DNA of 64,000 bases from Sphyrna mokarran (Eukaryota): NCBI GenBank assembly GCA_024679065.1, contig JAGIQG010000016.1, forward strand, positions 53,320,001 through 53,384,000, in the 5' to 3' direction. The notes beneath the pieces were generated by a model, which was not told the origin of the DNA, did no database searches, and saw nothing but the letters and a program-made list of their open reading frames with translations. A program made the position numbers and the translations under genes. Numbering within the stretch: position 1 is the stretch's first letter; each line of letters starts with the position of its first letter. This document shows, piece after piece, positions 38,778 through 58,850 of this stretch.

Positions 38778-39272
38778 TTTTGATTTGACTTAGTTTGTTA
38801 TTTTCACATGTATTAGCATACAGTGAAAAGTATTGTTTCTTGCACTTATGTGTACGAAGCATACCATATGTAGAGAAGGAAACAAGACAGTGCAGAATGC
38901 AGTGTTACAGTCTTAGCTAGGGTGTAGAGAAAGTTCAACTTAATGAAAGGAAGGTCCATTCAAAAGTCTGTTGGCAGCAGGGAAGAAGCTGTTCTTGAGT
39001 CAGTTGGTATGTGTCCTCAGACTTTTGTATCTTTTTCCTGATGGATGAAGATGGAAGAGAGAATGTCCAGAGTGCGTGGCATCCCTAATTATGCTGACTG
39101 CTTTGCAGATTCAGCAGGAAGTGTAGACAGACTCAACGGGTGAGAGGCTGGTTTGGGTGATGAATTGGACTACATTCATGACCTTTTGTCATTTCCTGCA
39201 GTTTTGGACAGAGCAGAAGCCATACCAAGCTGTGATGCAACCAGAAATAATGCTTTCTATGGTGCACCTTTA
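38778..39272 (-). mobile_element. Rex1/Babar-like LINE 3' end
   Basis: Reverse complement of the family at 33349-33680 and 58195-58850. Confidence 0.8.
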
Positions 39273-41873: not shown

Positions 41874-43575
41874 AAAACCAGAATGAACCATATTCTGGCA
41901 TATTCTCAGTTAACACACTAATCAGCGCATCCTTTCAGTCCAAATTTTTCTCGGTGCAAATACAATTAATTACAAATATGTTGCGTACTTCCTCTCTCGT
42001 GTTCCTGGTTGAGAGGTCAATTTGTTTGGATCCCAAAACAATAGTTTGTTATGCTTCAAAACATTGCTCTGCAAAAATTCTGTAAAAATATTTTTTAGAA
42101 TCGCTAAACTAGGACATGCTAAGTTGAGTACAGAATACAGAACCAATTATAATTACGAGAAATGGTTAAAAGTACATCCAATATAGCAATAAATATGTGT
42201 ACCTGTAGATTTAATAATTCACCTTTTATCTTTAACATGTTTGGTCATCCTAAGCAGAACTTCCCGATTGCAGGAAATTGTGTATTTTAGTTAGTTAAAC
42301 TCCAACTCGAGGAAGCACATTGAAGAATTCAGGGATAACTTTTATAATATAAACAAGTGCACCCTCTGTAGAATGCATATTGGGATCTTGGGCTTAAAGG
42401 TCAATGTAGCTGCTTTGTGCTTACAAATATCTCCAAATTTAATGGATATAGAAAGTCTTGTGGAATACAAACTTGGTGAACTGACCTTTGCACTTGCATT
42501 TCTGTACTATGCCTTTGGCACCGAGTTCCGCGATGGGAATGTTATTTGCAAAAATGAATCCCTTGGTGCTTAACTGGATCACAAGCTAAAAGTTAACTGT
42601 TGAAGTGTTGGTTTCCAATGGCTGCCAACCAACGACTAAGGACAATAACAGTTTGTTGTACACTCTGAGCAGCTCTTACATACTGTGAATCTGCTCGAGA
42701 ACTTATGCGGAACTAACATATGAACCCCCCCTTATGTACCCACATCATTGCAGCATTCACACGCCCAGCCGTTTAAGTTGGAGCATTTGGTACACTGAGG
42801 TATAACAGTGTGCAAGAACAGTGACTGGATGCATACTATTTACAACCTACAAATGGAACAGGCTAACAACACACAACTATTTAAATTGTGTGAAACATAA
42901 GATGAGGCTGCCAGTAGCTGATGCGTAGCCCATTGCATCTCCTTCCCCTTAATCCAATTTCTTAATAAAAACAAGGCCAGTTATGTACCAGTCTATGATG
43001 TAGTACGGGAACCTTGTATTTGGTTTTGTCAGGTACTCTGAGTGCATGTTGGTCATGCTCTCGGATTGGTGGCCTCAGCGTGGATGGCTTCAAGTGTCCT
43101 TTTGGACTTGCTTTGTTGACCTCTGTACGAGCTCCCATTTCCACTGGTGTGGGGGCAGAGGATGCAACTACACTGTAGGCTGTATGCTGGGGTACTGTAC
43201 TTGCAGCTCAGCTGTGGCATGGCCTATTCTGCCACCAAGGGTCTATTAGAATACGCATTGGAATGTTAAAAACTTCTGGTGCCCCAGCAAGTCTGATGAT
43301 GGATGGCAGTACCATCCAGTATAGTAACAACAATGACCATTTGCTGCAAGTGATACTGCTTTAGAAAGAGGGTTCCTCAAAATCTAGGCTAAATCTCCAT
43401 AATTCAGTGCTGAGGAACTGCTGCATTGTCAGAGATGCCATCTTTCAATGCTATCTGCCTGTTCAGATGGATGTGAAAGATTTTATGGCACCATTTTGAA
43501 GAAGAGCGAGCCAGTGTCCTGGCCAGCATTTATTCCTGAATCAACATGACAAAAACCAATTTATCATGAGTGGTC

Positions 43576-44038
43576 TGCAGATAGAGGGATATATGAGGAC
43601 TGTTTAAATACTTTAATTGTTTCCACAGGCTATTCGGTCCACCTTGTTGACCAACAAGGTGCATGCATTTGGCAGGTCGTGCGAGGGCTGCTCCTGGAGG
43701 TTACTTCAGGAGTGGCCTAGCGCTTCACGTTGTTAGTGTATGCTTAAACTGGACCATCAGATGGGCAACATGACAGCTCAGAGACTATCACTGTTGCTGT
43801 GCAGACACATGGATTTGGGCCTGTGTCTGCGGGAGTTTGCGCGTTCTCCCCGTGGTTGCGTGGGTTTTCTCCGGGTGCTCCGGTTTCCTCCCACATCCCA
43901 AAAATGTGCTCTTAGGCTGATTGGGTAACAAATTGTCCCTATATTGGTCTCTATATGTCATTAAGACGTTAGGATGGCGGCGTGGGCTCGTTGGGCCGAA
44001 GGGCCTGTTTCCCATGCTGTGTTGTTCTTTGTTCTTTG
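43576..44038 (+). mobile_element. Composite V-SINE derivative with 5' extension and (TTCTTTG)n tail, copy 1
   Basis: 5' extension shared with 48600-48745(-); degenerate tRNA head; V-core; CR1-type tail; 4 mismatches in about 218 nt versus 58370-58587. Confidence 0.8.
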
Positions 44039-44046
44039 GTCATCAT

Positions 44047-44350
44047 CATACAGTACAGAAGGAGGCCATTTGACCCATCAAGTCTGCACTGACCACAATC
44101 CCATCCAGGCTCTACACCATAACCCCATACGTTTACCCTAGCTGGCCCCCCTGTCACTAAGGGGCAATTTAGCATAGCCAATCCACCTAACCCACACGCA
44201 CATCTTTGGACAGTGGAAGGAAACCAGGGCATGTGGAGGAAACCCACACAGACATGGGGAGAATGTGCAAACTTCACACAGTGACCCAAAGCTGGAATTG
44301 AACCCTTCTAGCGCTGTGAGGCAGCAGTGTTAACCACTGTGCCACCATGG
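44047..44350 (-). mobile_element. HE1-like SINE, tail A
   Basis: Full copy flanked by candidate TSD CATCAT (44041-44046 / 44351-44356). Confidence 0.9.
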
Positions 44351-48219: not shown

Positions 48220-48790
48220 CAAAAGAACAACACAACACGGGAAACAGGCCCTTTGGCCCTACAAGCCTGCGCTGCCATTTTAACATTCAGTGAGTGCCTC
48301 ATTCCAATCCTCCTTCTACCTATGACTTTTGTCTATGCCTCTTGGACTCTATAATAAAGGTATGCAAATTTAGAGAATTATAAATATGCCAGATTGAGGG
48401 AGATCTAATGTGGGGACAATCTGTTAACATCAATTAGCCTAAAAGCACGTTTTTGGGGGTGTGGGAGGAAACCGGAGAAAACCCACACAAGCAGGGGGAG
48501 AATGTGCAAACTCCCACAGACACCGACCCAAGTCGGAGATCCGATCCAGGTCCATGTATCTGCACTGCAAACAGTGAAAGTCACTGAGCTGTCATGTTCC
48601 CCATCAGTTGGTCCAGTTTAAACGTACACTAATGACGTGAAGCACTAGGCAACTCTCAAAGCAACATCCAAGAGCAGCCCTTGCATGACCCACTGCGTGT
48701 AAGACCCTTGTTGGCCAACAAGGTGGACCAAATCATCTGTGGATGTGAAAAAAGAGACATCAATAAACATACACAGCTTACGCAGACAAC
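48220..48790 (-). mobile_element. Composite V-SINE derivative, copy 2 (older, longer)
   Basis: Tail AAGAACAACACAACACGGGAAACAGGCCC, V-core, head and 5' extension homologous to 43622-43820; about 100 nt extra between core and tail. Confidence 0.78.
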
Positions 48791-58194: not shown

Positions 58195-58850
58195 AGCAGC
58201 TTGGTATGACTCCTTCTGTGCCCAAGACAGCAAAAAAACTACAGAGGATCATGAACAAAGCCCAATCCATTGCACAAACCAGCCTCCCATCCATTGACAC
58301 TATCTACACTTCCCACTGTCTCAGAAAAACAGTCAGCATAATCAAGGATCCCACATATCAGGACATATTCTGTGTCTGCGGGAATTTGCGCGTTCTCCCC
58401 ATGGTTGCGTGGGTTTTCTCCGGGTGCTCCGGTTTCCTCCCACATCCCAAAAATGTGCTCTTAGGCTGATTGGGTAACAAATTGTCCCTATATTGGTCTC
58501 TATATGTCATTAAGACGTTAGGATGGCGGCGCGGGCTCGTTGGGCCGAAGGGCCTGTTTCCCGTGCTGTGTTGTTCTTTGTTCTTTGTATTCTCTTCCAT
58601 CTTCATCCATCTGGAAAAAGATCCAGAAGCCTGAGGACATGTACCAATCAACTCAAGAACAGCTTCTTCCCTGCTGCCATCAGGTTTTGAATGGACCTAC
58701 CTTGCATTAAGTTGATCTTTCTCTATACCCTATCTATGATTGTATTACATTCTGCACTCTCTCCTCTCCTTTTCTGTACAATATTCTTTGTCTGTACAGC
58801 ATGCAAGAAACAATACTTTTCACTACATACCAACACGTGACAATAATAAA
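58195..58850 (+). mobile_element. Rex1/Babar-like LINE 3' end (host of composite SINE copy 3)
   Basis: AWY...KKLQRIMNKAQSIAQTSLPSIDTIYTSHCLRKTVSIIKDP, resuming at 58588. Confidence 0.82.
58372..58587 (+). mobile_element. Composite V-SINE derivative, copy 3 (5'-truncated, young)
   Basis: Flanked by TSD TATTCT (58366-58371 / 58588-58593); about 98% identical to 43821-44038. Confidence 0.88.

Follow-up and report, generated by a model that had tools for sequence, protein, structure and literature searches.

A young CR1 LINE of Sphyrna mokarran with a decayed SINE and a putative splice acceptor in its 3' UTR

Positions 43565 to 44038 of the 64,000-nucleotide stretch of Sphyrna mokarran DNA analysed here (the window) are, judged by comparison with their relatives in the genome, the 5'-truncated 3' end of a young and abundant CR1 LINE, and not a SINE. 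The copy consists of the last 14 codons of ORF2 followed by a 431-nt 3' UTR, which comprises a 3' splice acceptor, a 120-nt folded module, the decayed head and core of an HE1-like V-SINE, and a CR1 tail (Table 1). We hold with good confidence the full reading, namely that this is a truncated CR1 end whose 3' UTR contains an acceptor and a promoter-dead HE1-like SINE, likely captured, and that copies joined at this acceptor likely derive from RNAs from which the whole coding region had been spliced out. The window copy itself is unspliced, retaining both the pyrimidine tract and the ORF2 end, which splicing removes. The name HE1 for the ordinary SINE comes from an initial annotation of this DNA and is taken over here as an assumption; the homology itself is to this genome's own ordinary SINE.

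Table 1. Positions of the features in the window, with the evidence on which each assignment is based.
Feature	Positions	Strand	Basis
CR1 ORF2 end, last 14 codons; TAA stop 43605-43607; 5' truncation ~43565	43565..43607	+	translation; same C-terminus closes RT-bearing ORFs in longer copies
Linker, 21 nt: pyrimidine tract and putative 3' splice acceptor, AG 43627-43628	43608..43628	+	copies joined exactly at the homologous position
Folded RNA module, 120 nt, predicted three-way junction	43636..43755	+	folding z, pairing across relatives; Rfam negative
Decayed tRNA-derived head of HE1-like SINE; A-box homologue ~43774-43784; 18-nt deletion over B box near 43812	43763..43822	+	alignment to consensus of 57 ordinary copies; homology from SINE 5' end
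SINE core, V-domain-like; boundaries set in this analysis, not from a published consensus	43823..43939	+	84% to ordinary HE1-like consensus over 131 nt
CR1 3' tail: stem-loop and (TTCTTTG)n, common to short-UTR sister CR1 family	43971..44038	+	comparison with sister UTR
Ordinary HE1-like SINE, abutting the tail of the window copy	44040..44350	-	
Copy 2: older subfamily O, 5'-truncated, ~10% diverged from relatives, decayed B box kept; acceptor AG 48738-48737	48220..48788	-	relatives reach up to 1487 nt further upstream; ORF2 C-terminus
Copy 3: young subfamily, more deeply truncated, inserted in older repeat	58370..58587	+	98.2% over 218 nt; both flanks match 38963-39194
Older repeat split by copy 3	58236..58688		its two halves match 38963-39194

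The element and its family

A search of the 2.77-Gb genome with positions 43576-43800 gave 2681 first-look candidates; the 40 that were scored match the query along its full length at 98-100% identity. A profile of the module matched five places in 400 kb of sample DNA, which by a very rough extrapolation would amount to tens of thousands of copies; the sequence preceding the tRNA-like head is abundant genome-wide and not confined to the two loci first seen. Upstream of 43576, the other loci fetched (29/29) align with one another for between 34 and more than 1500 nt, their 5' ends are scattered, and the translation is that of a reverse transcriptase (CR1 ORF2). Because its relatives extend into ORF2 with scattered 5' ends, the element is a LINE and not the SINE it had been taken for; the fixed 5' end and lack of coding sequence that mark a SINE were not found in these loci. 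The start had been placed at 43576, but the copy begins at 43565 and opens with 43 nt that close a reading frame: the 14 codons of 43566-43607 translate to a peptide closing with MSGLQIEGYMRTV and the stop, as in ORF2 of longer copies. The supposed unrecognised 5' module consists of the end of ORF2 and the 3' UTR of the CR1 itself. Intact Pol III A and B boxes were sought at the 5' end of the element and not found there, the tRNA-like head being internal, its A box degenerate and its B box deleted. The hallmarks of CR1-type elements are present, namely variable 5' truncation and a fixed 3' end with a stem-loop and microsatellite tail. We assign the family to the CR1 clade from its domains and its tail, the trees containing copies of this genome only, so that the placement is to be read as probable. 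A target-site duplication was sought for the window copy, and the longest candidate, at most 4 nt, is at the level of chance.

Walking upstream through the relatives yields a full element of ~4.6 kb with ORF1 and ORF2. In family members, ORF2 matches Exo_endo_phos (the APE endonuclease) and RVT_1 (the reverse transcriptase) above cut-off, and ORF1 gives a weak esterase-like match (Lipase_GDSL_2, E 7.9e-5) that falls below the Pfam cut-off. When copies were selected by their endonuclease region, 11/13 carried the same SINE head with the B-box deletion further downstream. The 5' end is made of ~200-nt tandem monomers, with a TATA box ~30 nt before the start of the next monomer. Each monomer examined (L288, L289, L238, L240, L242, L246 and L252-L254) contains a donor, an acceptor-like site and a TATA box, and a short stretch just 3' of the TATA box is complementary to the donor, which it might mask in multi-monomer RNAs. 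At a second donor-like site before ORF1, no spliced copy was found among 30 loci (30/30 unspliced there). A 1060-nt RNA contig (at L101:1837-2025; run X2) follows the 5' UTR to just before this second site and then continues with other sequence.

The family comprises at least five subfamilies (Y, U, T, S and O) that share one plan, in which the stop is followed by a linker of variable length, a pyrimidine tract with AG, the 120-nt module, the SINE part and the tail. The window copy belongs to Y and copy 2 to O, the older subfamily, which also extends into ORF2. A SINE-head-like motif lies downstream of the module in 134/137 module copies, and in the old subfamily the stop and the acceptor are 167 nt apart. 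Two copies truncated near the acceptor, L199 and L221, carry a short direct duplication of their own first 9-10 nt.

Many of the observations in the initial annotation hold up. The block that begins at 43622 recurs on the minus strand in 48220-48790 (43622-43795 against 48570-48743, 174 nt at 80%; 43622-43945 at 75.7%), with ~140 nt of it preceding the head at 43763. The module profile matches just these two places in the window, so the ordinary HE1-like copies there do lack the extension, and 57 ordinary copies, taken from the window and from 400 kb of sample DNA, have 5' flanks that are unrelated. As described, the A-box equivalent is degenerate and 18 nt over the B box are absent from the window copy; copy 2 does retain that segment, but in a form itself decayed relative to ordinary HE1. 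The window copy is CpG-rich (observed/expected 0.58, against 0.24 for the whole window) and nearly identical to copy 3 (58370-58587), and the family is indeed distinct, young and without reliance on A and B boxes. A CR1 with a (TTCTTTG)n tail had been proposed as its mobiliser; the tail exists, but the mobilising CR1 is the element itself. The other promoter or source locus that had been suspected is, for the window copy, merely the LINE's own 5' end, although the idea does apply to the ~0.5-kb spliced copies and the eIF4A-intron family found elsewhere. The reading as an independent composite SINE that has a 5' module of its own, relies on another promoter and is mobilised by a CR1 has in its favour a composite anatomy, a young age and a shared tail, all of them real, and short ORF-less copies of such anatomy do occur elsewhere. 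It is nevertheless very improbable, given that the window copy holds the last ORF2 codons and an intron end, that its relatives reach into ORF2 with scattered ends, and that the short copies form no clade of their own.

Origin and conservation of the 3' UTR

A consensus built from 57 ordinary HE1-like copies shows both the A and the B box intact and a sharp 5' end; the 5' flanks of these copies are unrelated, and the homology of the CR1 UTR to this SINE begins exactly at the SINE's first bases. Subfamily O matches the SINE consensus at 157/199 positions and keeps a decayed B box, where the other subfamilies lack 18 nt. A DNA tree of ORF2 ends, for which 65 of 112 rows were used after removal of near-duplicates, unites 23 module-bearing rows and one copy cut inside the module in a single, weakly supported group nested among other CR1s (support 54/78). 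The sister of this group, a short-UTR CR1, has the same TTCTTTG tail (support for the pair 100/100), and O takes the basal position. The DNA tree replaced a protein tree of 44 rows, which was set aside, frameshifted rows having produced long branches and a split module-bearing group. Because the module-bearing group is nested among CR1s, has a short-UTR sister with the same tail and has O at its base, the long UTR is likely derived and would have been inserted between the stop and the LINE's own tail. The direction of capture, from SINE to LINE, is argued from the intactness of the ordinary SINE, the start of the UTR homology at its 5' end and the B-box remnant kept by the basal O. The opposite course, in which the SINE head and core came from the CR1 UTR and ordinary HE1-like SINEs are its descendants, is very improbable. 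LINE parts are described as seeding SINE bodies in the accessible part of PMC5786205, but the shared part includes a tRNA-like head that the SINE has intact and the LINE in progressively decayed form, and the lineage with the long UTR falls among other CR1s and has a short-UTR sister.

Between the Y and O consensuses, identity amounts to 26/41 at four-fold sites, 105/120 in the module and 109/117 in the SINE core. That the module and core stand above the four-fold sites points to constraint; the rate of change in the acceptor, module and SINE core is below that of synonymous sites, and these parts therefore likely act in the RNA. Folding of the module gives z = -6.5, with a range of -1.8 to -7.1 across six subfamily consensuses, and across relatives 93% of cells are paired, slid controls lying near 40%, with 7/46 pairs changed on both sides. 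As this covariation is modest, and related sequences can beat a shuffle control, we attach moderate confidence to a conserved module fold. An Rfam search of the window element returned no match (best E 1.5). An HDV-like or hammerhead ribozyme was considered for the module and rejected on inspection, since the required pairings are absent. A 7-nt stretch of the module resembles an HDV-like loop, but the flanking stem does not pair in this sequence.

Copies joined at the acceptor and a trapped host exon

Nineteen genomic copies are joined exactly at the acceptor, 14 of them to the 45-47 nt with which the element itself starts, complete or truncated, and five to the end of an eIF4A exon; L219 and L267, with 13 and 5 nt of the first exon, and L270, with 2 nt, were left out of this count. 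In the 14 sister copies with the element's own start, the joint coincides with a GT donor and an AG acceptor that are present in the parent, and joining at this donor removes ~4.2 kb including both ORFs. What is left is SINE-like, ~0.5 kb long and without a Pol III promoter. Among the unspliced parents fetched, 7/10 carry the first exon, ORF sequence and acceptor-module in that order on one element, and the donor and acceptor are ~4.2-4.3 kb apart in the most complete of these parents. The tail hairpin, at 398-435 nt, is present with TTCTTTG repeats in 10/13 joined copies, whose flanks are unrelated. From these DNA copies, we conclude that the acceptor is likely used and that the coding region is likely removed by splicing.

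The share of joined copies depends on how they were sought. Among young module copies, a search for those that lack the pyrimidine tract found seven matches, and a corresponding search for older types found 60, of which 50 were inspected. In one of the seven, L176, a young copy of U type, the first 45 nt are joined at the GT donor to the acceptor and followed by the complete UTR and tail. Across the young families, this leaves one spliced copy (U type) against 3416 exact unspliced matches, and no spliced copy of the window's own Y subfamily was found. With the older first exon as query, a search that favours joined copies, 30 loci matched: in 13 of them the first exon runs into the module at one and the same joint, in another 13 it is followed by the donor or a point variant of it, and in four the GT is missing. 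An outcome-blind exact pattern for the older subfamilies returned 8 joined, 29 unspliced and 4 other copies out of 41, in which the spliced share is overstated because short RNAs are more often copied completely. The patterns used for older subfamilies did not admit most partners that end in AG, and the number of host-exon traps is therefore an underestimate. Spread does not depend on splicing, since 11/26 young full-length 5' ends have lost the donor GT. The donor GT is lacking in 4/17 older unspliced 5' ends (L250, L253, L255 and L258) as well as in those young ones (L143-L171), which may represent escape from splicing.

On a tree, joined copies interleave with LINE-attached copies, and they therefore likely arose repeatedly, without amplification of their own. 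A self-amplifying spliced master within the S-like group was considered and is not supported by the tree (57 rows, low supports).

It is improbable that the LINE reading is right but that the short copies stem from template jumps or DNA deletion at the foot of the module, with the acceptor-like motif an inherited passenger. Two copies do lend themselves to such an origin: L172 has an internal deletion that reaches the acceptor through a 4-nt microhomology, without a GT donor, and L165 (2222-2223 in the oriented copy) has an ambiguous deletion ending at the acceptor with microhomology, which could reflect a weak ORF1 donor. In the 19 joined copies, in contrast, the GT donors belong to three 5' partners that are unrelated to one another, one of these donors being the normal donor of a host exon, and other internal deletions have scattered breakpoints. 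Linkers that differ in length and sequence nevertheless all close with a pyrimidine tract and AG, also in runs of three organisms. The junctions have G on both sides, so that a shift of 1-2 nt is possible. Among assembled RNA contigs from other samples, a query copy without the first exon showed no joint at the acceptor in the 15 of 89 joints listed; a query across the spliced joint found no joint and no bridging piece among the 32 pieces listed (391 further pieces were not listed), and contigs of this kind drop rare variants. Loose contig ends occur at both the donor and the acceptor sites and represent unspliced forms.

The host partner can be traced to its locus. Five copies begin with the same 15-18 nt before the module, which are the end of a 138-nt host exon matching eIF4A (E 7e-25); a sixth related copy is cut 2 nt before the joint. 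At this locus (L261/L290; G000:C960, ~10,580,000, minus strand), the next intron holds a sense-oriented truncated CR1 end whose acceptor is 367 nt downstream of the eIF4A donor, and the neighbouring exons are recognisable. Of the marks derived in L261, some occur in all six related copies and a 4-nt deletion occurs in three, an uneven sharing that is expected if the source kept evolving between rounds. L261 is the likely source of the six exon-trapped copies. The predicted chimeric frame meets a stop 34 codons beyond the joint, and Rfam returned nothing for the eIF4A locus. Five of the six eIF4A-type copies start at nearly one place, with a start motif that resembles the CR1's own first bases; this suggests a Pol II initiator, the alternative being a decay intermediate that stopped at the folded module.

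Known systems, proposed course and role of the acceptor

HER1 is listed in a table of PMC3747384 as the partner of the HE1 V-SINE of sharks and rays. Like the vertebrate canonical CR1/HER1 as far as described in the sources at hand, the present element has an ORF2 with APE and RT, 5' truncation and a 3' stem-loop with a microsatellite tail; an esterase-like ORF1 may be a further common feature, its match here being weak and below cut-off. It differs in a 3' UTR of 430-700 nt with acceptor, module, SINE head and core, the other CR1s examined mostly having 60-110 nt. L1 SpIREs, in the accessible part of PMC5860796, are likewise spliced LINE RNAs that were copied back, lost promoter sequence and look like dead ends; those, however, splice within the 5' UTR or into ORF1, whereas here a 3' UTR acceptor takes out both ORFs (~4.2 kb) and leaves a SINE-sized product. 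SVA_F1, which acquired MAST2 sequence by splicing, is a further case in which a retroposon acceptor took up a host exon and a source locus then gave rise to repeated copies of the chimera, going by the available part of PMC3287187; here the acceptor comes from the 3' UTR of an autonomous LINE, the captured piece is only 15-18 nt of an internal eIF4A coding exon, and six related copies were found. The bipartite ORF-less LINEs of the RTE, Ingi, Vingi and R2 groups similarly retain only the 5' and 3' ends of the parent (PMC5786205). In contrast, the present copies belong to the CR1 clade, which the accessible part of that paper does not list for ORF-less forms, are joined GT-AG and give no sign of self-amplification; splicing goes unmentioned in the same part. 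MER6, a Mariner MITE with a headless V-SINE (PMC6887750, in part), is another case of a promoter-less V-SINE core that spreads inside a different mobile element, but here the carrier is a CR1 LINE, the element type on which such SINEs depend, and the piece is part of the copied RNA. A survey of the CR1 group (PMC13343379) mentions 5' repeating subunits and, in the part available, no comparable UTR; PMC5499810, as far as accessible, deals with other shark SINEs.

In this literature, no description of such a UTR or of its splicing was found; repeat databases and the original HE1 papers lie outside the comparison, so the family may be catalogued under a consensus name. Functional splice sites have reportedly been found in zebrafish L2 LINEs. 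New here are the joined copies and the eIF4A-derived family; spliced LINE copies (L1), host exon capture (SVA_F1) and ORF-less bipartite LINEs were already known.

The course that we infer leads from Pol II transcription of the monomers through 5'-truncated copying, spliceosomal removal of the ORFs and copying in trans to loss of the promoter. Transcription would likely start at the initiator-like motif 30 nt behind the TATA box in the ~200-nt 5' monomers, a placement deduced from the observed repeats and motifs. Unspliced RNA would give ORF1 and ORF2 and be copied from the 3' tail, usually incompletely, as in the window. If the GT donor, which lies 45-47 nt from the start of the RNA, is joined to the acceptor in the 3' UTR, the product would be an ORF-less RNA of ~0.5 kb, which the ORF2 protein likely copies in trans by way of the shared tail. 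The resulting copies would be left without the TATA region and appear to be dead ends. A truncated copy that lies in sense in a host intron could receive splicing from a host exon, as for eIF4A.

What the acceptor does for the element is less certain. It is quite conceivable that splicing is real but a tolerated by-product, with selection acting on the module and SINE core (for example, through RNA stability or loading of the ORF2 protein) and the acceptor having come with the captured block. Young families contain few spliced copies, loss of the donor is common, and the spliced copies resemble dead ends, as do L1 SpIREs in the accessible part of PMC5860796. Such an account differs from the best explanation in the role of the acceptor alone, and it sits poorly with the persistence of the pyrimidine tract and AG amid change in linker length and sequence. 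Our own preference, tentatively held, is that the acceptor may serve as a brake, which diverts part of the transcript from coding. More speculative, and on balance somewhat doubtful, is the wider proposal that this CR1 lineage keeps its entire coding region in a spliceable intron as a maintained switch, in which the acceptor, module and V-SINE core would form a terminal exon that makes short LINE or host RNAs copied by the LINE machinery, the eIF4A-derived family being one such birth.

For annotation, these results correct a trap, in that thousands of copies resembling an odd SINE are LINE ends. They also provide DNA evidence that an acceptor in a LINE 3' UTR removes both ORFs and traps host exons. 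A V-SINE core, the role of which is unexplained, is placed by them inside an autonomous element under apparent constraint, where it is directly open to deletion and retrotransposition assays. If the proposal of a maintained switch were true, it would offer a route to SINE-like families without a Pol III promoter. Given the trapping of a host exon, sense-oriented intronic copies of a family as abundant as this one could serve shark genes as terminal or poison exons.
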